Of a stretch of DNA of 64,000 nt, positions 11,325-50,917 are shown one piece after another. A program made the translations under genes and the position numbers. Position 1 is the first letter of the stretch; each line of letters begins with the position of its first letter. Source of the stretch: Patescibacteria group bacterium (GTDB lineage Bacteria; Patescibacteriota; Patescibacteriia; Patescibacteriales; UBA12465); the NCBI GenBank assembly GCA_041664445.1, contig JBAYKT010000005.1, forward strand, positions 7,438 to 71,437, read 5' to 3'. The notes beneath the pieces are model-generated. The model was given only the letters and a program-made list of their open reading frames with translations. It was not told the DNA's origin and did not search any database.

Positions 11325-13841
11325 TTACTTTTTTAAATAAGGCTTTAAATACTTGCCAGTCTCCGATTCCGGTTCCCTAACAATATCTTCCGGCGCACCC
11401 GCGGCTACTAAGCGTCCGCCTTTTTCACCGCCATCGGGCCCTAAATCAATAATATAATCCATAGACTTAAGCATATGCATATTATGCTCAATAACTAACA
11501 CCGAATTCCCCTTCTCCACTAACTTATTCAAAACGGTAAGTAACATATCAATATCATAATAATGCAAACCGGTTGTCGGTTCATCCAATAAATACAGAGT
11601 ACGCTTGCCTAAGGTATGGGTTAGCTCTTTAGCAATTTTAATTCTCTGCGCCTCACCGCCGGATAAGGTGGTCGCGCTTTGGCCGATTTTAATATAACCC
11701 AAACCGACCGACTGTAAAACTTTTAATTTTTCGGTGATATAGTAATTGCCGTCAAAATGCTCAACTGCCTCATCAATCGTCATATCCAATACCTGGGCGA
11801 TGTTCTTATCTTTATATTTAACTTGCAGAGTTTCGCGATTAAATCTTTTACCACGGCAAACCTCACATTCCACTAAAACTGGAGGCAAAAAATGCATTTC
11901 AATTAAATTTGCACCTGCTCCTTCGCAAGCTTCACAGCGTCCGCCCGGACGATTAAAGGAAAAACGGCCAATACCATAACCGCGTTCTCTGGCTTCCGGT
12001 AAACCGGCAAAGAAATCGCGAATCGGCGTAAAGATACCGGTGTAAGTAGCGGGATTAGAGCGCGGAGTGCGGCCAATCGGCGATTGGTCAATCACAACTA
12101 CCTTGCTGATATAATCAGTGCCCTTAATTTCTTTAACATCTTCCATTTTGGCGCGACCACCGGGACGCGCTTTAATATGAGAAACGTTTTTATATAACAC
12201 ATCGTAAAGAAAGGATGACTTTCCACTCCCAGAAACACCGCTGATACCGACTAAGCGTCCGAGTGGGATTTCTACGGTGATATTTTTTAAATTATTAGCC
12301 GTCGCGCCGATAATCTTCAAGGAGCCGTGATTTTGCTCGCGTCTTTTATTAGGCAGGCTAATTTCTCGATGACCGTTTAAATATTGCAAAGTCAAGGACT
12401 TTTTGGTGGCCGTCTTATCTTTACCGTCCAAAAGTGCCTTAACCTCACCCGCGGCCATAACTTCACCGCCGTGAACACCAGCCAAAGGTCCTAAATCAAC
12501 CAAATAATCCGCTGCTAGAATGGTTTTTTCATCATGCTCCACAATAATTACCGTATTATCCTTATCGCGTAATTTTTTCAAAGTATCAATCAGTTTTTCA
12601 GTGTCGCGTTCGTGCAGGCCGATTGTCGGTTCATCAAGAACATACAAAGTTCTCGATAAATGGGAACTGATTTGTGAAGATAAACGGATGCGCTGAGCCT
12701 CACCACCGGATAAGGTATGGGCTTCACGCTCTAAACTTAAATAATCCAGACCGACTTTAAGCAAAAACTCCAAGCGGCTAATAATCTGGACAACCACGTT
12801 CTCCGCAATCGCCAGCTCCCGCTTGGTCATTTTTTCATAATAACTATTGAAAAACTTTAAGGTTTTATCAAGCGGCAACTTAGCGACTTCAGCAATATTC
12901 TTGTTAGCAACTCTAACGGACAAACCTTCCGGTTTTAAGCGTGCGCCCTTACAAGTCTCGCATTTTTCTTCGCCAAAAAAATTCTTTTTGCCTAGTCCCG
13001 CGCATTCCGGACAAGCCCCAGCCGGCGAATTAAAAGAAAACAAGCGCGGCTCAACTTCCGGAAAAGAAAAATTATCATTCGGGCAAGTCCAATTGGAAGA
13101 TAGCAGAAATTCCTGTTTTTCATATTTAGCGACCACTAAGCCCTTGCTGTATTCCATGGCTTTTTCTACCGCTTCAAATAAGCGGGATTGGTCATCAAGC
13201 ATTACTTTATCAATCACAACATCAATATCATGATTTTGTTTGGAGGCTAACTTTATTTTTTCTCGGAGCGAGTGAATTTTTCCGTCTACCCGTGCTTCCG
13301 CATAGCCTAAACCTAAATAATTGTATAAAAGCTGATAATATTCACCTTTACGATTGCGAATAACCGGCGACATAATAGTCACATATTTTTCCTGAGAATC
13401 TTGGCCGCGGTTAATAATAATGTCCACCATTTCTTCGGTCGTCAGTTTTTCAATTTTATGGCCGCAAAGCGGACAATGCACATCGCCTACGCGCGCGTAT
13501 AAAACCCGTAAATAATCATAGATGTCGGTTAAAGTCCCGACCGTGGACCGCGGATTATGAGATAAGGCTTTTTGATCAATAGCAATTGCCGGTGCTAAAC
13601 CGATAATTTCATCCACATCGGCCGGTTTTTTCTGGCCCAAGAATTGACGCATATAGGGGGATAAGGATTCAACATATTGTCTTTGCCCTTCGGCAAAAAT
13701 CGTATCAAAAGCCAGCGACGATTTGCCACTTCCCGAAACGCCGGAAATTACCGTTAATTTATTATGCGGTATTTCCAAATTAATATTTTTCAAATTATGC
13801 ATCCGCGCGCCGCGGATTATCATTTTTCCTTTATCTGACAT
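11325..13841 (-). CDS. uvrA: excinuclease ABC subunit A, form lacking the insertion domain (838 aa)
   Basis: Two ABC modules (GVSGSGKSS twice; LSGGEAQR twice) and zinc modules. Only 9 residues between CAGLG and CETCKGARL. Confidence 0.95.
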   Translation of the reverse strand: MSDKGKMIIRGARMHNLKNINLEIPHNKLTVISGVSGSGKSSLAFDTIFAEGQRQYVESLSPYMRQFLGQKKPADVDEIIGLAPAIAIDQKALSHNPRSTVGTLTDIYDYLRVLYARVGDVHCPLCGHKIEKLTTEEMVDIIINRGQDSQEKYVTIMSPVIRNRKGEYYQLLYNYLGLGYAEARVDGKIHSLREKIKLASKQNHDIDVVIDKVMLDDQSRLFEAVEKAMEYSKGLVVAKYEKQEFLLSSNWTCPNDNFSFPEVEPRLFSFNSPAGACPECAGLGKKNFFGEEKCETCKGARLKPEGLSVRVANKNIAEVAKLPLDKTLKFFNSYYEKMTKRELAIAENVVVQIISRLEFLLKVGLDYLSLEREAHTLSGGEAQRIRLSSQISSHLSRTLYVLDEPTIGLHERDTEKLIDTLKKLRDKDNTVIIVEHDEKTILAADYLVDLGPLAGVHGGEVMAAGEVKALLDGKDKTATKKSLTLQYLNGHREISLPNKRREQNHGSLKIIGATANNLKNITVEIPLGRLVGISGVSGSGKSSFLYDVLYKNVSHIKARPGGRAKMEDVKEIKGTDYISKVVVIDQSPIGRTPRSNPATYTGIFTPIRDFFAGLPEARERGYGIGRFSFNRPGGRCEACEGAGANLIEMHFLPPVLVECEVCRGKRFNRETLQVKYKDKNIAQVLDMTIDEAVEHFDGNYYITEKLKVLQSVGLGYIKIGQSATTLSGGEAQRIKIAKELTHTLGKRTLYLLDEPTTGLHYYDIDMLLTVLNKLVEKGNSVLVIEHNMHMLKSMDYIIDLGPDGGEKGGRLVAAGAPEDIVREPESETGKYLKPYLKK

Positions 13842-13858
13842 ATATAAACAATTTCAAT

Positions 13859-14287
13859 TTATTTAAAAATTTTTCCCTCTTTATACCTTTCAATCATCAG
13901 CTCTGTGCCTTCAAAAAGCGGCTTTGGTAAATTATCCAAATCAAACCAGCGCCACTCAGCAAATTTTTTAGGCTCTTTAGTCTTCGGAATTCCCTGAGAT
14001 TTATTAGCCAGAAATCCTAGGCCAACATAATGCTTGCCTTTATCGATTGAACGTAATTCATCTTGAACTGAAATTAATTCTAACTCAGAAACCACGAGAC
14101 CAGTTTCTTCTAGGGCCTCTCTAGCCGCTCCATCAATTAGTTTTTCTCCGAACTCTAAATGCCCACCTGGAAAACACCAAGTTCCTTGACCATGAGGAGA
14201 TTTTCGCAAACCCAGCAAGACTTGATTTTCGTCATTCTTAATCATTACCCCTAGGCCGACCTTTGGTCGATTTTCAATATTTTCCAT
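13859..14287 (-). CDS. Nudix hydrolase
   Basis: 142 aa. Nudix box GGHLEFGEKLIDGAAREALEETGL. Confidence 0.85.
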   Translation of the reverse strand: MENIENRPKVGLGVMIKNDENQVLLGLRKSPHGQGTWCFPGGHLEFGEKLIDGAAREALEETGLVVSELELISVQDELRSIDKGKHYVGLGFLANKSQGIPKTKEPKKFAEWRWFDLDNLPKPLFEGTELMIERYKEGKIFK

Positions 14288-14293
14288 ATTATT

Positions 14294-15451
14294 TTAGGCT
14301 TTATTTTCTTGATTATTATCCTTATTGTAATTCCATCCAGGATGACGATAGTTTTCACTATTATTTTCGGCAATTTCATTAAATATAATCTTAAAATACT
14401 CAGGCTTAGTGGTGCTAAAAAATTGCCTTGAATCATCTGATAATTTACCTTTTTTATATAAATCTGAAAGTTGGCGATAATGTTCATCAGTGAATTCTTC
14501 ACCATACTTCTTTATTCCTAATTGTTCCATTTCTAACTCTAAAACTTGTTTGCGCGCATAACGCTCCGGCTGACTTCTAAAATAATTACTTAATACTCTT
14601 TTTGTATCCTCTCTTGTATCGCCGTGTGTTTTTTTAAGATACTCTTTAAACTCTGGTTTCTTGAAATCAATTTTTTGACCAGATTTACTCATTAATTTAG
14701 CCGCTTTACGGGAATATTCGTCGGCGTCAACTGTTTTATGCCCCAATATTTCATGCTCGACGGTAAATTCATGTTTTTTATGATTCTTGGGCAATATCAC
14801 CGAGAACCTTTTTTCATCAGTTTCATAGTTAGCATTATTGTCATCAAGAGAATAAGTTCCATGCATAATATTCTGCAGTCTCGTTTGTTGGTGTTCTTTA
14901 GCCGCCTGTTCATCGATATCGTATTCCAACATTAATTTTTTAAGATATTCCGGACTTTTTACATGTTCTATTAACGCCTCTATTTTACTATCATAAAATT
15001 CAAAGTCCTCTTTATTTTTAGAAAAATTCTCCTTATCAAAATAAACATCGCCTACTTCTTTAACTTTCAAATCAGGATTAACAAGATACTTCTCATAAAC
15101 GTTTATGAGTTGCTCCTGTTCCTCAATATTATTCCCGTCAGAAAGAAGACTCTTGGCATTATCCAAAGCCAACTTAACTTTTTCGATATTTTCCGCTAAG
15201 AGAATATCAGGATTTTCTTGTTTTTCTCTTAATTCGCCGCTAACATCTTTTTTGTTAGATAAATCATACATTTTAGGCGAATTACGGTCTAACATCCATT
15301 CATCATTTTTTGGCATTTTTTCTGACTGCGCCTGAACCTTTTCCGCTCCTAAAACTATGCTGGCACCAATGCCAACGGCGAGCGTGCCAATTTTAGCCGC
15401 TTTTTTAACATCCTCCTGCCCTTTTTTGAAAAATGATTCAAACTTAAACAT
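14294..15451 (-). CDS. exported or membrane-anchored HExxGH-motif protein (putative zinc metallopeptidase-like), paralogue 2
   Basis: 385 aa. N-terminus MFKFESFFKKGQEDVKKAAKIGTLAVGIGASIVLGAEKVQAQ. HEILGH, then PERYARK 63 residues later. Conserved tail IFNEIAENN. Confidence 0.5.
   Translation of the reverse strand: MFKFESFFKKGQEDVKKAAKIGTLAVGIGASIVLGAEKVQAQSEKMPKNDEWMLDRNSPKMYDLSNKKDVSGELREKQENPDILLAENIEKVKLALDNAKSLLSDGNNIEEQEQLINVYEKYLVNPDLKVKEVGDVYFDKENFSKNKEDFEFYDSKIEALIEHVKSPEYLKKLMLEYDIDEQAAKEHQQTRLQNIMHGTYSLDDNNANYETDEKRFSVILPKNHKKHEFTVEHEILGHKTVDADEYSRKAAKLMSKSGQKIDFKKPEFKEYLKKTHGDTREDTKRVLSNYFRSQPERYARKQVLELEMEQLGIKKYGEEFTDEHYRQLSDLYKKGKLSDDSRQFFSTTKPEYFKIIFNEIAENNSENYRHPGWNYNKDNNQENKA
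15326..15451. repeat. ~125-nt block about 90% identical to 17095..17220 (5' ends of the two paralogues)
   Basis: Hand alignment gives about 13 mismatches in about 125 nt, far above the similarity of the rest of the genes. Confidence 0.8.
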
Positions 15452-15453
15452 AT

Positions 15454-16035
15454 TTAATATTTTAAAAACGGATTTGGACCAGCAAAAGTGATTAGCGGTG
15501 TGTGATGGTTAATAATATCATTCGGAACGCCATATTTTTTATTATACAAGGTATCGGCGGCACAAAATAACGCCTCAGAATAATCAAAACCCAATTTAGC
15601 GCTCACGGCTTTTACTATTTCCTCCGATTGGCCTTCAACTTCCACATAGGGTTCTAGATAGGGCCATTCATCAATGGTAATTTCGGTATTATCCAGAGTC
15701 CAAAGTTCGCGGCGACTTTCTTGAAAGGCTTTCTGCTTGGCGCCGACTGATTCTAAAAACATGATGCCTTCCGCAAAATTATCAATTTTTAATTGAATTT
15801 CTTTTTGATTTTCTATTTTATCGCCGTCGACAACTTTTAGACTCATCGTTATTTTATCGCCTTCGTCACGGACTCTAAGCCAAGCACCGGGAATTTCATG
15901 ACCGACCGGTAATTCAAAAACAACGCGTTTCATTAAAAACTCCGCTTTAATAAGCTGAGCACCGGCGGCTTTTAAACGCGCGCGCATCTCGCCCTTATCA
16001 ATATTAATAAAAGTTGCTTCGTATTCAATGTTCAT
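15454..16035 (-). CDS. CYTH-domain protein (CyaB / triphosphate tunnel metalloenzyme family)
   Basis: 193 aa. N-terminal IEYEATF (ExExK-like signature with T for K). Beta-rich pattern with WLRVRDEGDKITMSLK typical of CYTH. Confidence 0.65.
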   Translation of the reverse strand: MNIEYEATFINIDKGEMRARLKAAGAQLIKAEFLMKRVVFELPVGHEIPGAWLRVRDEGDKITMSLKVVDGDKIENQKEIQLKIDNFAEGIMFLESVGAKQKAFQESRRELWTLDNTEITIDEWPYLEPYVEVEGQSEEIVKAVSAKLGFDYSEALFCAADTLYNKKYGVPNDIINHHTPLITFAGPNPFLKY

Positions 16036-16038
16036 ATT

Positions 16039-17220
16039 CTAAGCTTTATTTTCTTTATTTAAATTATTCTCCGGCGCTAGATTATTTTCGGCAATTTCGT
16101 TAAAAATTGTTTCTAAATATTCCGGTTTTACTATTTCTAAAAAATGTTTTGCTGAATCCGAAAGCTTATTCTGCTTTTTAAATTCATTAAGAATTGCTAT
16201 ATGCTCTAAACTAAACTTTTCGCCATATTTTTTAATTCCCAAATTTTCCATCTCCATTTCCAAATTCTTTTTGCGGGCATACATCTCACTAACATTAGAA
16301 AAATAATTAGTTAACTCAGCAAACACATCTTTAGTTCTTTCGGGCGTACTTATATTAAATTTTTCGGCCTTAGCATAATTTAGCAGAAATTCTGGGTTAT
16401 CACGGTAAGCCTCTTTAAATGTTTGTTGGGCTTTATTAGATAGACCAAATTCAGCAAAAGTGGCTTTATGTCCCAAGACTTCATGAGTAATTATTTCGTC
16501 CTTATTTTTAGCGCCCTCCTCTAAAGAAACTTTGGCGGAATTCTTTTTAATGCCACCATCTACCTCATAGCGCCAATTAAAATTACTATCGCCTTGGACC
16601 AAGGAATAATCTCCGGACTTAACAGCGTCAACCCTGGCTTCCTGTATTTTTTTAGCCTCTTCTATAGAGCACTCATATTCCCGAGACAATTTTTCTAAAT
16701 ATTCGGAACCCGCAACATGATTAATTAATTTCTCAAAAATCTTATCATATTCTGCCCTAGCATCTTCATAAGACTTAATGTCCGCTCCTCTTTCAGCTAA
16801 AGTTTTTTGCAAGTTTTCCTCAGCCTCCTTTAAATCTACCTGAAAACTTTTTTTAATTTCTGCTCCCCTAACTGAATCTGGAGTTAAAAAAAATGTCTCA
16901 TCAGTCAAAATTTCTTTATAATTTTTAATGCTTGTTTCTAAAATCCTAACTTTTTGCTCATTAAACTCAGCGGGGTTATACCCTTTTTCTTTATTAAAAT
17001 ATTCTTGAAAGTTATAATTTTGCTCGCTAGTAGCCGCGGACTCTGTTTTATTAGACTCCGCTTCAATATCAATTTTATTATTACGAACCGTGTCTTGCGC
17101 CTCAACCTTTTCCGCCCCTAAAACGACGCCAGCGCCAATGCCAACGGCAAGCGTGCCAATTTTAGCCGCTTTTTTAACATCTTCCTGCCCCTTTTTAAAA
17201 AATGAATCAAATTTAAACAT
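16039..17220 (-). CDS. exported or membrane-anchored HExxGH-motif protein (putative zinc metallopeptidase-like), paralogue 1
   Basis: 393 aa from MFKFDSFF. The longer ORF would overlap uvrB. HEVLGH, SEMYARK, tail IFNEIAENN. Confidence 0.5.
   Translation of the reverse strand: MFKFDSFFKKGQEDVKKAAKIGTLAVGIGAGVVLGAEKVEAQDTVRNNKIDIEAESNKTESAATSEQNYNFQEYFNKEKGYNPAEFNEQKVRILETSIKNYKEILTDETFFLTPDSVRGAEIKKSFQVDLKEAEENLQKTLAERGADIKSYEDARAEYDKIFEKLINHVAGSEYLEKLSREYECSIEEAKKIQEARVDAVKSGDYSLVQGDSNFNWRYEVDGGIKKNSAKVSLEEGAKNKDEIITHEVLGHKATFAEFGLSNKAQQTFKEAYRDNPEFLLNYAKAEKFNISTPERTKDVFAELTNYFSNVSEMYARKKNLEMEMENLGIKKYGEKFSLEHIAILNEFKKQNKLSDSAKHFLEIVKPEYLETIFNEIAENNLAPENNLNKENKA
17095..17220. repeat. partner of repeat 15326..15451
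   Basis: See 15326..15451. Confidence 0.8.
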
Positions 17221-34485: not shown

Positions 34486-34562
34486 TGGTGGTCGCTAGTG
34501 GACTCGAACCACTGGCCTCCGCGATGTGAACGCGGCGCTCTAACCAACTGAGCCAAGCGACC
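34486..34562 (-). tRNA. tRNA-Val (anticodon CAC), CCA encoded
   Basis: Cloverleaf folded by hand: acceptor GGTCGCT/AGCGACC, anticodon stem CCGCG/CGCGG, loop TTCACAT, T-arm AGTGG-TTCGAGT-CCACT. Confidence 0.9.
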
Positions 34563-34570
34563 GTTCTGAT

Positions 34571-34657
34571 TGGTGCCCAGAGGGGGATTTGAACCCCCAC
34601 AGGATTGCTCCTACAGCGTTCTGAACACTGCGTGTCTACCAATTTCACCATCTGGGC
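34571..34657 (-). tRNA. tRNA-Leu (anticodon CAG), long variable arm, CCA encoded
   Basis: Acceptor GCCCAGA/TCTGGGC, loop TTCAGAA, variable arm TAGGAGCAATCCTGT, T-arm GGGGG-TTCAAAT-CCCCC. Confidence 0.9.
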
Positions 34658-44422: not shown

Positions 44423-45349
44423 TTAGCGATTAACAAAAAGTTCGGTTAAAATAAAAATTAGATAAAGAAGAAACAACAGCGCCGCTTCTTTCTTGTTTAA
44501 CCTCTTATCTGATTTCATAAAATAAAATAAGAAGAAGGCCGCCAAAAGCATAAAGGAGCCGGTAACATATACGATTTTAGAATTAAACGCAAAGGGGTTA
44601 ATGAGCGCCATAATACCAACAATAATCGTGGCATCGGCGACCACTGTCCCCAAAATGTCCCCCAGAGCTAAATCGTCGTGATGATGTCTGGCAGCTTTAA
44701 TAGAAAAAAATAATTCCGGCAAAGTTGTCCCCAAGCCAACAATCAGCATGCCGATTAAAGCGGAATTAACTTTGAGGCTCTGAGCCAAATCAATGCCGTA
44801 TTTCACAGTAAAATGAGCTCCTAATAAAATTCCACCCATGCTAAGCACTAAAAATAGCAAATTTTTTACTTTAAATTTCTCCCGATCAACTTTAACGGCA
44901 TAAACATTATTTTTCAAAATCAAATAATAAAATAAAGCACCAACAATAATTAAAAGTAGGCCGTCTACCCGAGAGTAATATCCATTCAAACCAAGAAGTA
45001 GGGGCACAATTAAGGCTCCGAAATGCAGAAATCGATTTTTAATAAGCTTGCTCTCTATTTTTAAGTTTCTGCCTGATAGAAAAACGACTAATCCAAAAAC
45101 TAAAGTTAAATCGGCAATATTAGAACCAAATAAAGTTCCCAGACCGAAGGCTGGAATTTTTTCCAGGGCCGAAGTAATGGCAATAAACATTTCCGGCAAA
45201 ACGGAAATCAGGGCCACGACCACAAAACCAATAATATATTTCGGAAGGTTAAGGCTTTCTGCTAAACTGGCAGAATAACGAATAGAAAAATCAGCGCTTT
45301 TAATTACCACTAACAAAGCGACTAATAATAAAATAATGGTTAAAAACAT
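44423..45349 (-). CDS. CaCA-family cation/Ca2+ exchanger (YrbG-like)
   Basis: 308 aa. Two alpha-repeats (SVLPEMFIAITSA / GSNIADLTLVFG and GTTLPELFFSIKAA / GDILGTVVADATIIVG). Confidence 0.75.
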   Translation of the reverse strand: MFLTIILLLVALLVVIKSADFSIRYSASLAESLNLPKYIIGFVVVALISVLPEMFIAITSALEKIPAFGLGTLFGSNIADLTLVFGLVVFLSGRNLKIESKLIKNRFLHFGALIVPLLLGLNGYYSRVDGLLLIIVGALFYYLILKNNVYAVKVDREKFKVKNLLFLVLSMGGILLGAHFTVKYGIDLAQSLKVNSALIGMLIVGLGTTLPELFFSIKAARHHHDDLALGDILGTVVADATIIVGIMALINPFAFNSKIVYVTGSFMLLAAFFLFYFMKSDKRLNKKEAALLFLLYLIFILTELFVNR

Positions 45350-45378: not shown

Positions 45379-45421
45379 TATATAACAAAAATACCACATT
45401 TCATAGTATTTTGTCTATTTG
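45379..45421. repeat. intergenic terminator/promoter-module repeat, copy A
   Basis: TATATAACAAAAATACCAC..hairpin..TTGTCTATTTG. 19 + 11 nt identical to copy B. Confidence 0.7.
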
Positions 45422-45527
45422 TTTAATTATGTAAACAGATATTGACCTCTATAGCCTAATATGGTATTTTAATTAATCAACAAAAAAACTAACGAACATT
45501 AAAAACAAATAAAAATTGGAGGTAAAC

Positions 45528-46274
45528 ATGAAGAAGTTAACAATTTTTTTAGCAATTTTTTTTCTAGCGCTGACTAATATTTCCGCGCAAGATTACGACG
45601 GTTTATCCTTTTGGTTTGGAAGCTCATGGAACCGAATCAGCGTCTCCCATTTACCGGAGTATTTGCGGGACATTCCTGCTCACAAAAAAGATGGCGGTAA
45701 AGCAACCGGCATCATCACCAGAGAGGCTTACGACTACGCCTTCTCTATTCCCTTTGACTTGCGCTATGAATATCCCAGTAAAACTAACACCCACTTTGGT
45801 TTTGGCATTACCATGGTTATTCCAATAGAAAGCTTCGCTAAAAGGAATTACACTAATGCCCCCGGCACCGATAAAAGAGGCTATGGCGCTGCTTTAACTT
45901 TTGCCGGCATCACGACTCTCGGGCCCTTTAGTTCTTTGGCCGGTATAAGACCAGTTCTTCCTGGCTTGGCCTTTACGCCAAATTTTTTCATGGAAACAAG
46001 TTTGAAAAACAACGTTAAAACACATTTAGCTTTAGGTTACCAGGCTTTGGGGGCAATTAATGGTTGGGATCGCTATGACCAGCTACAGTCCAGGCAAATA
46101 AAAGTTTTAGCCCACATTTTTTCCTTAAGCGCTGGCTTAAAAGCTAAGTTCTTAAAAACTAACTGGGAAATCGGACCGAGCGTCTTGTTGCCAATTAAAA
46201 CTAGCACCGGACGCGAGGCTGAAGTTAAAACCTCGGCTGGCCTTTATCTGTTCGTTCAGATGCCTGAAGATTAA
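45528..46274 (+). CDS. secreted beta-rich protein, possible small beta-barrel
   Basis: Signal peptide MKKLTIFLAIFFLALTNISAQ. Repeated amphipathic strands (HFGFGITMVIPI, GAALTFAGITTL, HLALGYQALGAI, HIFSLSAGLKAKF, SAGLYLFVQM). Confidence 0.4.
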   Translation: MKKLTIFLAIFFLALTNISAQDYDGLSFWFGSSWNRISVSHLPEYLRDIPAHKKDGGKATGIITREAYDYAFSIPFDLRYEYPSKTNTHFGFGITMVIPIESFAKRNYTNAPGTDKRGYGAALTFAGITTLGPFSSLAGIRPVLPGLAFTPNFFMETSLKNNVKTHLALGYQALGAINGWDRYDQLQSRQIKVLAHIFSLSAGLKAKFLKTNWEIGPSVLLPIKTSTGREAEVKTSAGLYLFVQMPED

Positions 46275-46295
46275 ATTTCTTTAAAATTAAAAACA

Positions 46296-46330
46296 CAAAA
46301 AAACCGTCAACACCCTGACGGTTTTTTTAA
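46296..46330. terminator. bidirectional terminator
   Basis: CCGTCA-N6-TGACGG followed by T7, preceded by an A-run. Confidence 0.8.
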
Positions 46331-46352
46331 GATAAGTAGCTTATTTACAAAA

Positions 46353-46859
46353 CTACCAACCAATTTCGCTATAATGGACGTTATTATTAATATTATCCAA
46401 GACGGTTTTAATTTCCGGAACTAAATTACTTGGTAAATTATTTAGCGCAAACCATTTCAGTTCATCGCATTTTTCCGGTTCCATATTAGTAATTTCTCCC
46501 TCCCATTTGTTGGCACTCACAAAAATATCAAAATACTCACGGTCGGTTGCCAGTCGATGGATAACATTAACTACTTTTAAGTCACCGGCATTCAATACGA
46601 TTCCGGCCTCCTCCAACGCTTCACGCGCGATACATTGGGCCGCGGTCTCCCCGCCATCAAAATGGCCGGAAACTAAGCTATAGTTTCCGTCTTGATAACC
46701 GGTATTATAGCGTCTCAAGAGCAAAATCTGTTCGTCTTTTACCAGGACTAAATAGGCGGCGGCGTAAGGCTTGAATCTTTCTTCTATATTAGACATATTA
46801 TTTATGACATCAATGTTGATTAACTTTGCCATTCCAAGTAACAGAACTAAATTATCCAC
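46353..46859 (-). CDS. Nudix hydrolase (start uncertain: M1, M10 or M22)
   Basis: Nudix box SGHFDGGETAAQCIAREALEEAGI. Confidence 0.8.
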   Translation of the reverse strand: MDNLVLLLGMAKLINIDVINNMSNIEERFKPYAAAYLVLVKDEQILLLRRYNTGYQDGNYSLVSGHFDGGETAAQCIAREALEEAGIVLNAGDLKVVNVIHRLATDREYFDIFVSANKWEGEITNMEPEKCDELKWFALNNLPSNLVPEIKTVLDNINNNVHYSEIGW

Positions 46860-47736
46860 AATTCTCTTTCAATATTCTATTATAAATTGTCAGACAATTT
46901 TGCGCATCTCCGGTGTCTTTCCATTTTCTATATTTACATATATCCTGCTTGGATGGATATTTATGCACAAGAATATCAGACCGCCTGAACATGTCTTGCT
47001 CAATAATAGTTTTTGATTTTTCATAGATTCCCTCAATATCTTGTTCGTCATCACAATTATAATCAGAAAAACTTTCTTTAACTCTAGTTAAATCTAGACT
47101 GTTATCTTTAAGAACACTCCTATAAACATAGCCGTTCAAACGACACCCAGGACTAGAATCTTCTAATTTTAGTTTATACCAATATTTACCTTTTCTATAA
47201 ACAATGCGTAAATCATCTTTATTATCATATTGAATAACGCAGGTGTCATACTTTGTCTCCAATTGTTTGTATTCGCCTCCAAACAAAATTGGATTTATAT
47301 TCATCACCTTAAAGGGTACATATAGTTTGCGATGCGGCTCACACCAATCAAAACAAGATGATTCATTCGAAGTATAAATAAATAAACGGCCATTACTGAA
47401 AAAAACTTTAGCACCCTCTAAATTAGGTCGATTTAAAAATAACAAATATAGGATAAAGATAATGATAGCCAAAATACTTATTATTTTTTTACCAAGACGC
47501 TTCTTTTTCGGTTGATTGTTATTATTATCTACAACATTCTTTTTACTTTTTAATAAAACAAAGACTGAAAAAGTAAAAATTGTTACCGGGGCGTAAGTAT
47601 AAATTAAAGCGTTTAATGAATTAGAATTATCACGAAAAATATAATTATAAAGAAGTAACGCCACAAAAACTAATGACACAAAAAAAGCCGCTAAAAATAA
47701 CTTGGACAATATATCCAAAATTTTATTGATTTTCAT
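46852..47736 (-). CDS. orphan membrane-anchored Cys/Tyr/Lys-rich protein
   Basis: 294 aa. Three N-terminal hydrophobic segments, no recognisable domain. Confidence 0.45.
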   Translation of the reverse strand: MKINKILDILSKLFLAAFFVSLVFVALLLYNYIFRDNSNSLNALIYTYAPVTIFTFSVFVLLKSKKNVVDNNNNQPKKKRLGKKIISILAIIIFILYLLFLNRPNLEGAKVFFSNGRLFIYTSNESSCFDWCEPHRKLYVPFKVMNINPILFGGEYKQLETKYDTCVIQYDNKDDLRIVYRKGKYWYKLKLEDSSPGCRLNGYVYRSVLKDNSLDLTRVKESFSDYNCDDEQDIEGIYEKSKTIIEQDMFRRSDILVHKYPSKQDICKYRKWKDTGDAQNCLTIYNRILKENCG

Positions 47737-47752
47737 ATTTATATTTATATAC

Positions 47753-47795
47753 TATATAACAAAAATACCACGGAAACGGTATTTTTGTCTATTTG
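47753..47795. repeat. intergenic module repeat, copy B
   Basis: TATATAACAAAAATACCAC-GGAAACGGTATTT-TTGTCTATTTG. Confidence 0.7.
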
Positions 47796-47838
47796 CTCTG
47801 AGGGCTGGAGATGTGCCGGGATGCCTTTTGGTAAATAA

Positions 47839-47870
47839 AAACGAGCGATTTGAAATCCGCTCGTTAAAAG
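47839..47870 (-). terminator. terminator of the 79-aa gene
   Basis: ACGAGCG-N10-CGCTCGT with a T-run on the minus strand. Confidence 0.7.
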
Positions 47871-47877
47871 AGTTTAA

Positions 47878-48117
47878 TTACCATAAATTATTTGGCGTAC
47901 GTTTTACAGTTTTTTTATGGCAATCCCTGTCGGCATAAGCTTTTTTTTGAGACCTTCTTATTTGTCTCAATTTCTTTTTTTTGCTTACTTTCTTGTGTTT
48001 TTTGTTATTTTTTTTAAACTCCGTTTTATGTTTGTGATTGGTTGCCGTATTTGCCAAGGCAACATTAGAGATTAAAATACTAACAACAAGAATGATAAAA
48101 AAAACAATCTTTTTCAT
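47878..48117 (-). CDS. secreted, extremely cationic 79-aa peptide precursor
   Basis: Signal peptide MKKIVFFIILVVSILISNVALA. 57-aa mature part with 17 K, 5 R, 4 H and only 3 acidic residues. Consensus promoter. Confidence 0.45.
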   Translation of the reverse strand: MKKIVFFIILVVSILISNVALANTATNHKHKTEFKKNNKKHKKVSKKKKLRQIRRSQKKAYADRDCHKKTVKRTPNNLW

Positions 48118-48152
48118 GGTATACTATTTAAGTTTTAAAAGTTCTAAAAAGA

Positions 48153-48241
48153 TTATATCATAATATTATGATTTTGTCAATAATATAACAAAAAATAGAC
48201 TAATATTAGTCTATTTAATGTAATTGCTCAGGGATAGGGAT
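48153..48241. repeat. ~89-bp repeat copy C: promoter + terminator hairpin + 15-nt tRNA-Gln 3'-end duplicate
   Basis: 48174..48241 matches 48819..48886 at 66 of 68 nt. Minus strand TTGACA-17-TATAAT. AATAGACTA-ATAT-TAGTCTATT hairpin. Confidence 0.85.
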
Positions 48242-48285
48242 ATAGGCGGAACAAACTCTTGGCTTTGAAACTTAAACTAAATTAA

Positions 48286-48320
48286 AAGCCCCAAAATAAA
48301 TAAATTTCGGGGCTTTAGAA
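48286..48320 (-). terminator. terminator of the 126-aa gene
   Basis: AGCCCCGAAA-N..-TTTTGGGGCT hairpin with a T-run on the minus strand. Confidence 0.6.
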
Positions 48321-48354
48321 AATACTTTTTGCATCACTCGCTTAGTTTTTTCTA

Positions 48355-48735
48355 CTAAGAAACAAATTGGTCAACATATTCCAAAAGTTCGTTAGTCACT
48401 CTCAAAATCTGAGGAGCACCATCAATATGTAAAGTATTTTGAGGACAATCTGCATTTCCTGAATACGTTTCCATAATTACAGATCCCTCACTGATAAGAC
48501 GGGATAAGGCACTCCCATTATCGACGCCACTTAAGAGGTCACGACTTGCAACATTTTTGTTGGCCCAGGTAAAAGAATCGCCGGTTTTTTTGTAGTTATA
48601 AAAACACGAGCATATTGCCTGGGTGGCAATAACTTCCGCTTCGATGTTTTGCCATCTACTTCCCATTAAGGAGTCTTGATTTTTTTTCAAAATATCAGCA
48701 ATTTTCTTTAACAGTTCTGCGTTAATAGCTTCCAT
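48355..48735 (-). CDS. orphan 126-aa cytoplasmic protein
   Basis: No recognisable motif. Driven by the TTGACA-17-TATAGT promoter of repeat copy D. Confidence 0.45.
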   Translation of the reverse strand: MEAINAELLKKIADILKKNQDSLMGSRWQNIEAEVIATQAICSCFYNYKKTGDSFTWANKNVASRDLLSGVDNGSALSRLISEGSVIMETYSGNADCPQNTLHIDGAPQILRVTNELLEYVDQFVS

Positions 48736-48797
48736 AAGATGTTTCTTTTTTAAATGAATATTTGGTTTTTAATAATACTATCTAACAATGAATTAAA

Positions 48798-48886
48798 CTA
48801 TATCATATTTATCTAAACTTGTCAATAATATAACAAAAAATAGACTAATACTAGTCTATTTAATGTAATTGCTCGGGGATAGGGAT
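48798..48886. repeat. repeat copy D (overlaps the genuine 3' end of tRNA-Gln)
   Basis: See copy C. Constant offset of 645 bp. Confidence 0.85.
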
Positions 48887-48942
48887 TCGAACCCCAATAG
48901 CCAGGACCAGAACCTGGAGTCCTACCGTTAGACGATCCCCGA
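48872..48942 (-). tRNA. tRNA-Gln (anticodon CTG), CCA not encoded
   Basis: Acceptor TCGGGGA/TCCCCGA (U1-A72), anticodon stem CCAGG/CCTGG, loop TTCTGGT, T-arm TGGGG-TTCGAAT-CCCTA. Confidence 0.85.
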
Positions 48943-48948
48943 ATATCT

Positions 48949-49404
48949 TTATTTAATTTCCTTCAACTTCTTAATAAGCTTCTCCCAAGTCGCCACTGTG
49001 CCAGTCTCGACCTTAAATAACGAATGGACTTCCAGCTCTAATATTTTTTTCAACTCAACAAATCTCTTAGCATCTCTCGTTTCCAACTTTTTCAATAAAT
49101 GCTCAAATTCATATTTAATCTGACCCGTGCTTACTTTAATTTTTTCTATATTTTTTTTCAAGAGCCCGATTTTTGCCTTTTCAAATTTATAACCACGGCT
49201 AAAGGCTTCCTTATAAATTCCATCCAAAAAAGCATTAATATAATCAAGCGGATTTTCTTGCTCCTTAAATCGTTCCAACTGCGGATGGTTTTTATAACCC
49301 TTAGTCTTCCCCTCTAAAACTTTTTTAGCCAAAAGAGCTTCCCGCCAAACGGCTAAAAGTCCTTGCCGATCTAAATATTTAGGGGACAAACTCCAAAGAC
49401 GCAT
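48949..49404 (-). CDS. pyrimidine-dimer DNA glycosylase (T4 endonuclease V / DenV-like family)
   Basis: 151 aa. MRLWSLSPKYLDRQGLLAVWREALLAKKVL..KGYKNHPQL signature of the bacterial Pyr_excise family. Confidence 0.7.
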   Translation of the reverse strand: MRLWSLSPKYLDRQGLLAVWREALLAKKVLEGKTKGYKNHPQLERFKEQENPLDYINAFLDGIYKEAFSRGYKFEKAKIGLLKKNIEKIKVSTGQIKYEFEHLLKKLETRDAKRFVELKKILELEVHSLFKVETGTVATWEKLIKKLKEIK

Positions 49405-49405
49405 T

Positions 49406-50917
49406 TTATTTAATATCTTCAGCTTCTATTTTTGGCCGCATCAACGGAAACAAAGTTGTTTCTCTAACCGGCTTATCCATCATAAAAGCAAATAAGCGTT
49501 CACCGAAACCAAAGCCACAAGTTGGTGGCATACCATATTCCAACATTTCCACAAATTCCCAATCAGGCATCATCGCCTCCTTATCGCCTCTATCAATTAA
49601 TTTCTGTTGCAAAGCAAAGCGATTATATTGGTCAACCGGATCGTTTAATTCCGAAAAGCCGTTGCCCATTTCACTCCCGGCAATAATAACCTGAAAGCGT
49701 TCAGTGAGTTCCGGATTATCAGTTTTAGCCTTAGACAAAGGCGACACTAATTTCGGATGGTTAATTAAAAATACCGGACCGGCAATACTCTTGCGGCAAT
49801 ATTTCCAAAGAGTGTCGGTTAAGCGTTCGCGATTATCGCCTTCATATTTAACTTGGAGCTCTTCCAACTTGGCTTTCATTTCCGCTTCCGTAGCTTTTAA
49901 AACATCAATTCCGGTTTGACGCAAAACTTCGCTTTGATAATCCAAGCGCGGCCACTGGCCAGCCAAATCATATTCAAAACCCTTGGTGGTAAACTTAGTT
50001 CTGCCAAAAACTTGCTGGGCGATTTCTTGATATAAATCTTGAGTAATCTTCATACCCATTTCATAATCGGCATAGGCCATATAAAATTCCATGTTGGTAA
50101 ATTCCTGCAAATGATCGGGACTGGAACCTTCATTGCGATAAACGCGGCCAATTTCAAAAGTCTTTTCATATCCGGCAGCCATTAAACGCTTTTGCCAAAG
50201 CTCGCCGACAGAGATGCGCAAAAACACATCCAAATCATAATCGTCATGATGAGTCTTAAAAGGATTGGCTTCGGCACCACCGGTGGTTGTTTCTAAGGTC
50301 GGGGTTTCAATTTCAAAAAAACCGCGCGCCTTCAAAAAATTTCTGGTCACTTCCCAAAACTTTGCTTTCTTGCGAAACATTTCACGCGTTTCCGGAGATA
50401 AAATTAAATCTAAATAACGTTTGCGATATCTATCGTCATCATCCTTTAAGCCATACCAAGCATCAGGAATCGGTCTTAAAGCTTTAGTCAAAATATTCCA
50501 ACTCTTGGCCATTAAGCTCTGCTCGCCTTTATGTGTCAAAAAAGCGACGCCAGCAACCGAAATAAAATCACCATTATCAATTAGTTTTACAAAATTTTTA
50601 TAGCCTTCATCACCCAACTCTTTCTTGGACAAAGCAATTTGCAAACGACCACTCTCATCCTCTAAATCTACAAAAGTTAAATTACCATGACTGCGAACAC
50701 TACGCAGGCGGCCGGCAACATTAACGACACTCAAATCCGCGGCCAATTTGTCAAAAGACTCTAAAACTTCAGAGGTATTTTTATCTCTGATAGTCTTAGC
50801 CGGATAAGGATTCAAGCCTTTAGCTTTAAGCTCGCTTAATTTTTTTAAACGTTCTTCGCGCTCACTGATTTTTCCGGATTCGTCTTGTTGTTGTTCTTTA
50901 CTTGTAGCCGCAGACAT
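49406..50917 (-). CDS. lysS: lysyl-tRNA synthetase, class II
   Basis: 503 aa. OB anticodon-binding domain plus class II motifs (FFEIETPTL, YRNEG, GFGFGERL). Confidence 0.95.
   Translation of the reverse strand: MSAATSKEQQQDESGKISEREERLKKLSELKAKGLNPYPAKTIRDKNTSEVLESFDKLAADLSVVNVAGRLRSVRSHGNLTFVDLEDESGRLQIALSKKELGDEGYKNFVKLIDNGDFISVAGVAFLTHKGEQSLMAKSWNILTKALRPIPDAWYGLKDDDDRYRKRYLDLILSPETREMFRKKAKFWEVTRNFLKARGFFEIETPTLETTTGGAEANPFKTHHDDYDLDVFLRISVGELWQKRLMAAGYEKTFEIGRVYRNEGSSPDHLQEFTNMEFYMAYADYEMGMKITQDLYQEIAQQVFGRTKFTTKGFEYDLAGQWPRLDYQSEVLRQTGIDVLKATEAEMKAKLEELQVKYEGDNRERLTDTLWKYCRKSIAGPVFLINHPKLVSPLSKAKTDNPELTERFQVIIAGSEMGNGFSELNDPVDQYNRFALQQKLIDRGDKEAMMPDWEFVEMLEYGMPPTCGFGFGERLFAFMMDKPVRETTLFPLMRPKIEAEDIK

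Follow-up and report, generated by a model that had tools for sequence, protein, structure and literature searches.

The four module copies in the window, by which we mean the whole 64-kb (64,000-nt) stretch of DNA analysed here, are read with moderate confidence as junction elements of a small, variable cassette array that, in a Candidatus Falkowbacteria-like (Patescibacteria) genome, is anchored to the tRNA-Gln(CTG) 3' end and whose cassettes would be gained and swapped via recombination at or next to the boundary between ...CCCC and GAGC. What repeats is a unit that opens with the tRNA-Gln(CTG) 3' end, or with a pseudo-copy terminating in CCGAGC, and continues with a T-run hairpin and a promoter. 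An earlier note on this DNA had described a AAATAGAC-hairpin-TTTTTGTTATAT module as the repeated unit; this module does repeat, but it is not a free-standing motif and belongs to a longer unit made of a pseudo-tRNA-Gln 3' segment and a variable terminator/promoter hairpin. The array is a compact, integrase-less version of the known pile-up of mobile DNA at tRNA genes. Overall, the interpretation given in the earlier note was partly supported. The features of the locus, read from the tRNA towards the conserved right flank, are as follows.

48871..48942, minus strand: tRNA-Gln(CTG), anchor of the array (ARAGORN; Rfam tRNA 53.9 bits)
48828..48861, minus strand: copy C, type 2 hairpin and T-run (pattern match; fold -11.1 kcal/mol, z -4.7)
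48797..48825, minus strand: predicted cassette 1 promoter, TTGACA-17-TATAGT with TG (11/12 consensus matches)
48355..48735, minus strand: cassette 1 cargo, 126-aa orphan gene without Pfam/NCBIfam match
48285..48316, minus strand: predicted cassette 1 intrinsic terminator (13-pair stem and T-run)
48226..48252, minus strand: 27-nt pseudo-tRNA-Gln 3' fragment GTTCCGCCTATATCCCTATCCCTGAGC (unit profile, E = 4.9e-11)
48183..48216, minus strand: copy D, type 2 hairpin and T-run (pattern match; hairpin fold)
48152..48180, minus strand: predicted cassette 2 promoter, TTGACA-17-TATAAT with TG (12/12 consensus matches)
47878..48117, minus strand: cassette 2 cargo, gene for a 79-aa lysine-rich secreted/membrane peptide (ORF)
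47840..47865, minus strand: predicted cassette 2 intrinsic terminator
47795..47822, minus strand: decayed pseudo-tRNA fragment ...CATCTCCAGCCCTCAGAGC (alignment; nhmmer unit match 47820-47754, E = 1.2e-13)
47754..47794, minus strand: copy B, type 1 module (pattern match; fold -13.7 kcal/mol, z -5.0)
46353..47736, minus strand: cassette 3 cargo, an orphan gene for a 294-aa membrane protein (46852-47736) and an overlapping NUDIX hydrolase gene (46353-46859)
46296..46329, minus strand: predicted intrinsic terminator 3' of the NUDIX gene
45528..46274, plus strand: 248-aa secreted protein gene, in opposite orientation
45380..45420, minus strand: copy A, type 1 module (pattern match; hairpin fold)
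44423..45349, minus strand: CaCA (Na+/Ca2+ exchanger family) gene, conserved right flank (Pfam)

The pattern AAATAGAC-N(8-36)-TTTTTGTTATAT matches exactly four times in 64 kb, always on the minus strand and within 3.5 kb, while 100 shuffles gave no match (expected 0). As the earlier note had stated, all four copies form self-complementary hairpins (-8.7 to -13.7 kcal/mol, z -2.9 to -5.0). The near identity claimed for C and D was borne out by an 88-nt direct repeat (48154-48241 and 48799-48886, 90% identity, 645 nt apart) that spans the final 18 nt of tRNA-Gln and the hairpin and extends as far as the -10 box, and the partial identity claimed for A and B by 19 identical nt on the 3' side together with CAAATAGACAAAA on the 5' side. 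However, AAATAGAC is not the same part in the two types of copy: in C and D it forms the hairpin 5' arm, in A and B it lies upstream of the hairpin, aligned to AATTACAT of C and D, so that the two pairs match in different registers and are not homologous there. The order (tRNA end or fragment)-module-gene-terminator occurs three times in the window, as had been noticed, and the segment is indeed AT-rich (G+C 0.30-0.32 at 47-49 kb vs ~0.39 elsewhere). A type IV pilin-like gene lies near the array.

The tRNA-Gln ends in ...ATCCCTATCCCCGAGC without an encoded CCA, and we propose this end as the left half of an attachment site. Copy C (AAATAGACTA-GTAT-TAGTCTATTT, followed by a T-run) would, judged from consensus, terminate tRNA-Gln transcription and at the same time open cassette 1. 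Copy B has a 13-pair hairpin built from the promoter spacer and the -10 region, with a T-run behind it. The 17-nt string in front of it, previously read as a possible tRNA 3' end with CCA, is a decayed tRNA fragment, but it terminates in ...CCCTCAGAGC at 47795-47798 and not in CCA. Copy A had been placed outside the islet; it bounds the same variable region on the distal side and is the predicted promoter of the CaCA gene. Its tRNA fragment is not recognisable, the unit profile matching the module part only (nhmmer, E = 3.2e-5), and its ortholog in locus L165 carries a swapped hairpin apex. Some relatives (L163, L165) conserve the 248-aa gene in the distal part of their variable region.

The unit, its arrays and their confinement to the tRNA-Gln locus were observed in many related genomes. 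The unit profile found 56 copies, all on one strand, in 472 kb downstream of lysS/tRNA-Gln and none in 631 kb upstream. Where LysRS is at least 67% identical, 14 of 32 loci have arrays of two or more units, compared with none of 23 more distant loci; in related Patescibacteria the arrays comprise 2-7 same-strand units, ~200-2000 nt apart, downstream of tRNA-Gln only. In a metagenome scan ~32 of 49 exact-pattern matches were true modules, and ...CCGAGC precedes all but a few of these, the exceptions having decayed remnants only. The best-conserved portion of the unit across arrays is the pseudo-tRNA part, with conservation falling sharply just past GAGC-A, and the units of one array are nearly identical to each other. 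G+C is 0.335 in arrays and 0.393 in flanks. The cargo consists mostly of unique, single orphan genes, only 13 of 127 cassette ORFs having a relative in another cassette. The suggestion of a serial accretion of promoter-bearing mini-cassettes behind tRNA-Gln agrees with this one-sided census, the differing content and the orphan cargo; neither a spread of the module over core genes without a link to variable regions nor synteny of the cassettes in distant relatives was found.

Cassettes turn over between relatives: close relatives keep the flanks (lysS-tRNA-Gln ... CaCA/YceI) and differ in the cassettes between them. Locus L002 (LysRS 92%) has tRNA-Gln, an empty unit and a permease, followed by syntenic CaCA-YceI with a 92% identical CaCA gene; in L041 the CaCA gene stands immediately behind tRNA-Gln. 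The 126-aa protein forms only five protein clusters, all at least 87% identical, and its cassette occurs in five arrays with different neighbours in each, ranking first in the window and L163 and fourth in L155, with other neighbours again in L110 and L157. Between the window and L110 this cassette is 89% identical over 657 nt, including an identical promoter, and homology stops at GAGCA on both sides. The 3' flank of the gene in L155/L156 differs from that in the window. As this difference shows, terminator-plus-fragment blocks can be exchanged apart from the gene, which is compatible with homologous exchange too and counts against the preferred reading. The 79-aa peptide has no homologue in ~130 related loci, and a single one (52%) was found for the 294-aa protein. 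For the strain itself no presence/absence polymorphism was seen in other samples, which speaks against the preferred reading.

The hairpin stem covaries across modules, its variable position being G:C in 22, C:G in 18, U·G in one and mismatched in one. Promoter and terminator activities are predicted from consensus matches. At least 10 of 13 promoter positions fit in 51% of 85 distinct units, compared to 5% of shuffles, and the -35 element is located at +3 to +5 after GAGC in 35 units or at +43/44 in eight. Type 2 modules (C and D) carry a consensus promoter that is distinct from the hairpin and located 3' of it. The earlier note saw a clear promoter in C and D only; nevertheless, the type 1 modules A and B hold a conserved promoter-like site (TAGACA, 18-nt spacer, TGG, TATTTT), and relatives have a perfect TTGACA-17-TGnTAnnnT at the matching place. 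Since AAATAGACA corresponds to the -35 box (TAGACA; TTGACA in relatives) and GTGGTATTTT to a TG-extended -10, terminator hairpin and promoter overlap in A and B.

We propose that each junction consists of the tRNA-Gln 3' end or a pseudo-copy and a T-run hairpin which would stop transcription coming from the tRNA or the upstream cassette. In type 1 the same 40 nt might also encode a sigma-70-type promoter with its -35 in AAATAGACA and its TG-extended -10 TGGTATTTT in the hairpin 3' arm; such a transcript would begin past the hairpin and escape its termination. A cassette would then comprise module, one gene, terminator and pseudo-tRNA fragment, and every insertion would supply the tRNA with a new terminator and shift older cassettes distally. 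The likeliest agent would be a large serine recombinase (LSR) acting in trans from inovirus-like prophages, with the tRNA end as attB-type and the pseudo-fragments as attP-type half-sites.

Several observations bear on this putative agent. An LSR gene (Resolvase, Recombinase and Zn ribbon) abuts the tRNA-Gln terminator on the reverse strand in L007, L011, L029 and L031, and relatives at 46-49% identity are likewise placed in L170 and L171/L233. The carriers are inovirus-like prophages that, in other species, occupy this very tRNA end; the sequence behind GAGC is element-derived there, and in L031 and L054 homology is lost precisely at the tRNA end. The T-loop motif GTTC[CG][AG]A starts 22 nt before the GAGC end in intact tRNAs and 27 nt before it in all 38 motif-bearing pseudo-fragments, which fall into two sequence classes; the fragment at 48226..48252 has this 5-nt shift. 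In serine integrase sites the zinc-ribbon motif is offset by +5 bp in attP relative to attB (PMC3783163), and by analogy the shift would be this attP-versus-attB geometry. Counting against the preferred reading, none of the LSR-bearing loci contains an array. No recombinase of any kind was found in the window or in ~127 array cassettes, and the LSR elements yielded neither an attR nor an attP that carries a pseudo-fragment. Right of the junction the T-loop motif does not recur in inverted form, so the dyad symmetry that serine integrase sites usually have is missing here. Canonical serine integrases are not known to join attL to attP, and serial insertion would therefore require relaxed specificity.

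A rather unlikely alternative is that homologous recombination and not a site-specific enzyme moves the cassettes, the pseudo-tRNA fragments, the modules (30-90 nt) and lysS-tRNA-Gln serving as portable homology, so that incoming DNA of relatives exchanges or adds genes between repeats, like the 'minimal mobile elements' of Neisseria. That flanking homology can drive gene-content variation is documented (PMC3787668). The lack of a recombinase in the arrays would be expected, and the near identity of units within an array favours RecA-type exchange and gene conversion, to which the 88 nt shared by C and D, the apex swap between the orthologous hairpins of copy A, the separately exchanging terminator-plus-fragment blocks and the nearby pilin-like gene can be added. 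Left unexplained are the origin of the pseudo-tRNA fragments, the uniform motif shift in two unrelated sequence classes and the sharp loss of conservation past GAGC-A; moreover, the repeats are near the lower length limit of efficient RecA recombination, and the fragment allele (CCCAGTCCCC) unlike that of the host tRNA (CCCTATCCCC) points to import with the cassettes rather than local copying. Somewhat less probable still is an array without any cassette-level mobility, in which a few large elements (prophages or islands) integrated serially at tRNA-Gln and deletions left single 'moron'-like genes amid old attachment-site scars. Intact LSR-carrying, inovirus-like prophages do occupy this very site in other species, the farther fragments lie from the tRNA the less they resemble the host copy (rho -0.41, p = 0.006), those in the window are intact at C and progressively more decayed at D, B and A, and Prochlorococcus islands contain scattered partial tRNAs and degraded elements (10.1101/2020.12.28.424599). 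However, remnants recognisable as recombinase or phage genes are absent from all ~127 cassettes, the architecture of fragment, hairpin/promoter, one gene and terminator is regular, and the 126-aa cassette takes varied ranks and neighbours, its homology stopping at GAGCA. No increase of decay with array rank was seen (rho 0.07), which tells against erosion and against our preferred reading alike.

The two remaining explanations appear very improbable. Palindromes overlapping the -10 and flanks conserved across species might suggest an operator or shared regulon promoter for co-regulated genes, unrelated to mobility, yet the copies occur at a single locus on a single strand, are physically linked with tRNA-Gln 3' fragments and serve unrelated orphans that differ between relatives; stem changes are compensatory (G:C/C:G) with G·U wobbles that pair on the sense strand only, which argues for a structure and not a fixed binding sequence. 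The least probable is an integron or integron-like system with a tyrosine recombinase and hairpins acting as folded attC sites. It would account for arrays whose genes are diverse, for the most part single and frequently orphan, along with toxin-antitoxin pairs, for repeats homogeneous within an array and for hairpins conserved in structure rather than sequence. But no tyrosine recombinase lies within 10 kb at any locus, except Xer-like genes in distant relatives, the hairpins are perfect stems of 34-41 nt with T-runs and not 57-141-nt attC sites with extrahelical bases, the GTTRRRY core is absent (GTTATAT fails), and the repeat stands upstream of the gene, carries a promoter and has a tRNA-derived conserved part.

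Among known systems, the proposed cassettes at tRNA-Gln recall phage 'morons', reportedly described by Juhala et al. in 2000 and by Hendrix et al. as single genes with their own promoter and terminator and a deviant base composition. The units here share these traits, but morons lie between phage genes, whereas the units are stacked on the chromosome behind a tRNA, with attachment-site-like scars. Integrons, especially sedentary chromosomal arrays (PMC4889954, PMC11551772), similarly have short, same-strand, mostly single-gene cassettes of unknown function, structured inter-cassette repeats that are homogeneous per genome, toxin-antitoxin cassettes and one fixed entry point; the tRNA-Gln arrays are without IntI, attI and Pc, and their repeats are tRNA-derived, 5' of the gene, with terminator, promoter and short, perfect hairpins. 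Serine integrase attB/attP sites (PMC3783163) have a 7-9-bp motif 5 bp farther from the crossover in the element-derived half-site, as do the fragments (27 nt) compared to the host tRNA (22 nt); as in LI integrase sites, the motif would lie at 11-19 (tRNA) and 16-24 (fragment) from a crossover between CCCC and GAGC. The offset is seen in left half-sites only, with no inverted motif on the right side, and the pairing of enzyme and site is putative.

Prochlorococcus tycheposons (10.1101/2020.12.28.424599) also reside in a streamlined genome, in islands beside specific tRNA genes, as tandem elements separated by partial tRNA copies, with older insertions pushed inward by newer ones, remnants and partial tRNAs scattered across the island and a large serine recombinase in a minority of elements. 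However, they carry their own integrase, replication modules and multi-gene cargo, while the tRNA-Gln arrays are without these hallmark genes and have one promoter-equipped gene per unit. The Dehalococcoides ssrA islands (serine integrase DsiB; PMC3146451), which are a precedent for the putative LSR and alongside which SCC elements at orfX offer a further analogy, resemble the arrays in a single small RNA gene as anchor, downstream tandem islands each bounded by a direct repeat of the gene 3' end, an insertion point within the T-loop or close to it, a conserved motif of non-gene origin preceding each repeat, a ~540-aa serine recombinase on the reverse strand beside attL, some islands without integrase ('cis-mobilizable'), low G+C and strain-specific content. 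In contrast to these islands of several kb with a 20-bp exact repeat, the tRNA-Gln arrays have no integrase in any member and are built of mostly single-gene units of 0.4-2.4 kb, with a 27-nt pseudo-copy at a +5-nt offset and a terminator/promoter hairpin brought by every unit, in a Patescibacteria lineage with tRNA-Gln as the target.

The relatives of its LysRS identify the putative host of the window as a Candidatus Falkowbacteria-like member of the Patescibacteria, with the complete chromosome CP066698.1 as the closest species representative (LysRS 92% identical). The window belongs to a metagenome contig of 90.5 kb. On the minus strand, greA, lysS, a pyrimidine-dimer glycosylase gene and tRNA-Gln(CTG) are followed by three units, each of module, gene and terminator. 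Distal to these lie a 248-aa gene on the opposite strand, a fourth module, the CaCA exchanger gene and YceI.

Features of the lysS/tRNA-Gln region in the window
49406-50917, minus strand: lysS
48949-49404, minus strand: pyrimidine-dimer glycosylase gene, between lysS and tRNA-Gln
48871-48942, minus strand: tRNA-Gln(CTG), intact, bordering the variable region
48828-48861, minus strand: module copy C
48226-48252, minus strand: pseudo-tRNA fragment
48183-48216, minus strand: module copy D
about 47795-47822, minus strand: pseudo-tRNA fragment
47754-47794, minus strand: module copy B
45528-46274, plus strand: 248-aa gene
45380-45420, minus strand: module copy A

The four-copy module described in the earlier note was recovered, since AAATAGAC-N(8-36)-TTTTTGTTATAT matched four times, always on the minus strand, and 0 times in 100 shuffles. 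All four copies fold into the proposed self-complementary hairpin (z -2.9 to -5.0). C and D, correctly described as near-identical, both lie within an 88-nt direct repeat (90% identity, 645 nt apart), which starts at the last 18 nt of the tRNA and stops at the -10 box. The segment is also AT-rich as claimed, with a G+C content of 0.30-0.32 at 47-49 kb compared to ∼0.39 elsewhere, and no copies were found outside 45.4-48.9 kb in the 64-kb window and none in 631 kb of upstream flanks. Two other claims had to be revised. When type 2 (C, D; hairpin, then promoter) was aligned with type 1 (A, B; hairpin overlapping promoter) by MAFFT, the 5' box 'AAATAGAC' taken as common to all copies turned out to be a coincidence of register: over the full length, 'AAATAGAC' of C and D is a hairpin arm homologous to AAAATAG of type 1, and the type-1 -35 aligns to AATTACAT of type 2. 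Copy A, regarded as an occurrence outside the array, is instead the predicted CaCA promoter at the distal edge of the same variable region.

A consensus promoter had been reported only for C and D. Their separate promoter stands, but A and B hold a predicted one as well, with a -35 (TAGACA) within AAATAGACA, an 18-nt spacer and GTGGTATTTT as TG-extended -10; spacer and -10 together form the hairpin, and a T-run follows. In several relatives (loci L004, L006, L020) a type-1 module stands directly behind the tRNA, whose end ...CCCCGAGC runs into AAATAGACAAnAATnCCAC-loop-GTGGTATTTTTGTTATAT, and the equivalent position in others (L025, L030, L032, L049) reads TTGACA-17/18-TGnTAnnnT. Type-2 units carry a separate TTGACA-17-TATAAT 3' of the hairpin. 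At least 10 of 13 promoter points were reached by 51% of 85 distinct units and by 5% of shuffles, and the -35 is positioned +3 to +5 after GAGC in 35 units and +43/44 in 8 type-2 units. The modules show the features of sigma-70-type promoters at fixed registers (-35 near TTGACA, 16-18 nt spacer, TGn, -10 TAnnnT) as well as those of rho-independent terminators (stable hairpin, T-run directly after it, on the transcribed strand).

In a set of 43 distinct type-1 modules, the pair at the variable stem position is G:C 22 times and C:G 18 times, with one U·G and one mismatch; it was tallied directly, because one-nt register shifts in the A-run misalign the 5' arm in the MAFFT alignment. The wobbles in the type-1 stem pair on the sense strand only. 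The compensatory stem changes and the sense-strand-only wobbles point to an RNA terminator hairpin and not to a palindrome bound by a protein. Judged from this pattern, the hairpin is under structural selection. From consensus and covariation we conclude that the module is a predicted terminator for upstream transcription fused to the putative promoter of the downstream gene, and the overlapping terminator/promoter hairpin would neatly illustrate how compact genomes use dual coding.

In metagenome contigs the exact pattern matched 49 times; ∼32 of the matches are true modules, and all of these except a few with only decayed remnants are preceded by ...CCGAGC. The source of CCGAGC is either the intact tRNA-Gln or a conserved pseudo-fragment, e.g. 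AAAAAGTTCCAAyyyTATCCCAGTCyCCGAGC. The fragment at window copy D (GTTCCGCCTATATCCCTATCCCTGAGC) belongs to this family, as does the decayed one at copy B, and copy A has no recognisable tRNA fragment. No part of the unit is better conserved across arrays than the fragment; conservation falls directly after GAGC-A, and the hairpin behind it varies (type 1, type 2 or others). The tRNA-Gln(CTG) gene follows lysS in nearly all relatives, and a profile of the unit found 56 copies at lysS loci, all on the lysS strand and within 472 kb downstream, against 0 in the 631 kb upstream. Where LysRS is at least 67% identical, 14 of 32 loci have an array (two or more units); none of 23 more distant loci does. 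Arrays comprise 2-7 units in relatives (maximum 6-7, in L142), keep to one strand throughout, with a unit spacing of ∼200-2000 nt and usually one gene each, and have a G+C content of 0.335 compared to 0.393 in the upstream flanks. The window tRNA-Gln (48871-48942) lacks a genome-encoded CCA and reads ...CCCCGAGC, then AAT; tRNA-Val and tRNA-Leu of the window (34486-34657) both have an encoded CCA end. The trailer of the window tRNA-Gln is cassette-derived sequence.

Recurrence among the 127 cassette ORFs is limited to 13 small families. From N-terminal sequences inspected by eye, we take the cargo to include toxin-antitoxin pairs, nucleotidyltransferases, HIT, cupin and isochorismatase-like proteins and many orphans; a PNPOx-like gene has a weak precomputed Pfam match. 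Small gene pairs resembling Phd/RelE-type toxin-antitoxin systems (by eye, N-terminal sequences) lie at L130 801-1266 and L152 4604-5193. An IS3-like two-ORF transposase (by eye) stands directly behind a fragment and type-1 unit at L147 1253-2321, so these arrays also receive insertion sequences. A second tRNA-like 3' end allele, GTTCGAATCCGACCCyGGGAGC, with the tRNA-type 22-nt spacing, precedes type-1 modules at L037 14011 and at L152 4054 (minus strand) and also adjoins a large serine recombinase (LSR) gene at the end of L170, which suggests a second target or donor tRNA allele. Some short-read contigs start or stop inside the repeated module (L156, a Logan unitig of 1176 nt; start of L162), so arrays will often be fragmented or collapsed when metagenomes are assembled; that L156 has identical ends is no evidence for a circle.

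Between close relatives the cassette content differs and the flanks are syntenic, as seen for the window against L002, L155, L163 and L165.

Gene order behind tRNA-Gln in the window and at loci of relatives (numbers name genes; 126, 79, 294 and 248 by protein length in aa)
Window: tRNA, 126, 79, 294 with NUDIX, 248 (opposite strand), copy A, CaCA, YceI
L002: tRNA, empty unit, permease, CaCA, YceI
L163: tRNA, 126, ArsR with YgaP-like, 248 (opposite strand), YceI
L165: (...), GNAT with 179, another gene, 248 (opposite strand), A-type module, CaCA, YceI
L155: tRNA, 109, 66 with 192, 126, PNPOx with 124, 153
L041: CaCA directly behind tRNA

The 126-aa cassette is common to the window and L110; the match starts at TCCCCGAGCA, ends at the next GAGCA and covers 657 nt (89% identity), and no homology extends past either end. 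Its non-coding 5' region (window 48736-48870: hairpin, promoter, leader) is ∼97% identical to L110, the coding part ∼87%. The PNPOx gene has its own type-1 module both behind the tRNA (L006) and behind a fragment (L110, L112, L155); it keeps the module in either setting, so a module moves together with its downstream gene. L165 has an orthologous copy A in which the hairpin apex is swapped (AGCAC/GTGCT). The cargo itself is rare: the 126-aa family has only five protein clusters among 5.8 billion, the 294-aa protein has one relative (52%), and the 79-aa peptide has none in the fetched loci. The '126-aa' gene of L165 was rejected as a family member, being an unrelated gene of the same length only. 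The 248-aa protein has a signal peptide and relatives in 29 clusters, without a Pfam or NCBIfam family; a source is named for a few relatives, in each case Patescibacteria or unclassified bacteria. As to presence/absence of cassettes at strain level, same-strain contigs from other samples, which encode identical PyrEx and CaCA proteins, show the same gene order and no polymorphism.

'Empty' units of ∼217-220 nt consist of a terminator hairpin and a ∼165-nt GC-rich element, in host genomes of 35-40% G+C. The element is present at L116 6722-7160 (two to three tandem copies) and in L110, L153, L013, L026, L134, L144 and L124, and absent from the window. Its ends pair (GGATTCG... with ...CGGAAATCC), and it terminates in a host-matching tRNA-Gln-like 3' end. 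RNAalifold revealed compensatory changes in 13 of 29 pairs, e.g. AAGCTCC/GGAGCTT compared to ATATGCC/GGCATAT. The element may be a so far undescribed structured site, in RNA or DNA, with cassette-like behaviour. For modules, arrays in relatives and the GC-rich element, only tRNA was above the Rfam threshold.

Among 2752 ORFs from all loci, motif and profile searches detected neither tyrosine nor serine recombinases inside arrays or in the window. At the tRNA-Gln end of L007, L011, L029 and L031, the reverse strand carries an LSR gene (Resolvase, Recombinase and zinc-ribbon domains) directly against the tRNA-Gln terminator, and these loci, like L233, carry LSR elements without arrays. The sequence after GAGC is near-identical among the first four despite differing tRNA alleles, and homology between L031 and L054 breaks exactly at the tRNA end. 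The L031 element (11951-16900) encodes the LSR and a rolling-circle Rep, both confirmed by Pfam. LSR relatives in IMG/VR (46-49% identity) sit likewise at a tRNA-Gln end, and L233, a whole IMG/VR contig of 9133 nt, encodes what we take by eye to be Rep-like, Zot-like ATPase, coat-like and LexA-like repressor proteins. These small integrated elements, which belong to other species of the clade, look like inovirus-type prophages.

In every intact tRNA-Gln, GTTC[CG][AG]A begins 22 nt ahead of the end of GAGC; in 38 of 38 pseudo-fragments that have the motif, drawn from two sequence classes, the distance is 27 nt. In serine integrase sites the zinc-ribbon motif is 5 bp nearer the centre in attB than in attP (PMC3783163). 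With a crossover between CCCC and GAGC, the motif occupies positions 11-19 in the tRNA and 16-24 in the fragment, the 5-bp shift expected of attB- and attP-type half-sites. On these grounds we favour a model in which a serine recombinase acting in trans at the tRNA-Gln end would move the cassettes. The tRNA-Gln 3' end would be the attB-type half-site, and the pseudo-fragments would be attP-type half-sites that each insertion left at its far junction. The model names a candidate enzyme/site pair, the tRNA-Gln-associated serine integrase with 22-nt and 27-nt half-sites; if true, the attP of the LSR inovirus should be a 27-nt pseudo-tRNA fragment directly 5' of ATCGATGAACTAACAGG.

Several observations bear on this model and on other readings. 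The expected dyad symmetry failed, with no enrichment of the inverted motif right of GAGC at any position within 60 nt in 99 units, and no locus was found with both array and LSR. No tRNA-end repeat or 27-nt fragment marking an attR of the LSR elements was present within 9.4 kb (L031), in L009/L029 or in the whole 9.1-kb L233. Searches of IMG/VR for a viral attP yielded 24 matches to the loose module pattern, all chance-like and without hairpin, and 0 to the fragment pattern; the GAGC+module pattern gave 4, all within unrelated phage genes, and the LSR-element junction pattern 0. Fragment decay shows a moderate trend with distance from the tRNA (rho -0.41, p = 0.006) and none with array rank. 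Serial insertion by a serine recombinase requires relaxed site pairing, and exchange of some blocks would fit homologous recombination. A dispersed intergenic repeat (MITE-, REP- or Correia-like) would have many copies scattered on both strands; those of the module keep to one strand and have no counterparts elsewhere in the window or in the 631 kb of upstream flanks. A dif/Xer-like reading of TTTTGTTATAT was dropped because left arm and symmetry do not fit. Beyond the favoured serine-recombinase model, we regard it as a rather unlikely proposal that Falkowbacteria-like Patescibacteria possess a dedicated integron-like gene-capture platform made of different parts, with entry at the tRNA-Gln 3' end, a serine recombinase in trans (e.g. 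from tRNA-Gln-targeting inoviruses) in place of the tyrosine recombinase and attP-type cassettes with a dual-use hairpin. This hairpin would re-terminate the tRNA and drive the cassette's own gene, and the ∼165-nt GC-rich structured element could be an RNA or DNA cofactor.

Patescibacteria (Candidate Phyla Radiation, CPR) have tiny genomes with few recognised mobile elements, so that, to our knowledge, their acquisition of strain-specific genes is poorly understood. The tRNA-Gln locus is a recurrent, precisely bounded hot spot where single orphan genes equipped with putative promoter and terminator are stacked and exchanged in many species, and the pseudo-tRNA-Gln fragment plus hairpin provides a signature for the flexible gene pool of Patescibacteria in metagenomes. 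Within the literature searched, we found no description of such a tRNA-Gln cassette-array arrangement in Patescibacteria or the CPR.

The closest known counterpart of the tRNA-Gln array model would be the ssrA islands of Dehalococcoides, which are tandem, carry 3'-end repeats, insert in the T-loop, have a reverse-strand serine integrase beside attL and include integrase-less 'cis-mobilizable' members (PMC3146451). Partial tRNA repeats are well known from islands at tRNA genes, e.g. tycheposon islands (10.1101/2020.12.28.424599), and like tRNA-anchored tandem islands the window has an intact tRNA, same-strand 3' repeats and variable content between syntenic flanks. Integrons likewise hold gene cassettes in arrays, but the tRNA-Gln arrays are not integrons: no IntI-type gene lies beside them (2752 ORFs; only Xer-like genes, in distant relatives). 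Integron attC sites are imperfect hairpins of 57-141 nt with R''/R' cores (GTTRRRY) 3' of the ORF, whereas the hairpins of the tRNA-Gln arrays are perfect, 34-41 nt long, followed by a T-run and located 5' of the ORF, and GTTATAT misfits GTTRRRY. Unlike integron repeats, those of the arrays lie 5' of the gene and bear a promoter. Compared to these systems, four features appear new: the scale and regularity of single-gene cassettes with promoter and terminator, without hallmark genes, across dozens of arrays; a pseudo-tRNA repeat whose spacing is of the attP type; a hairpin, given to the tRNA by each cassette, in which terminator and promoter overlap; and the host group.
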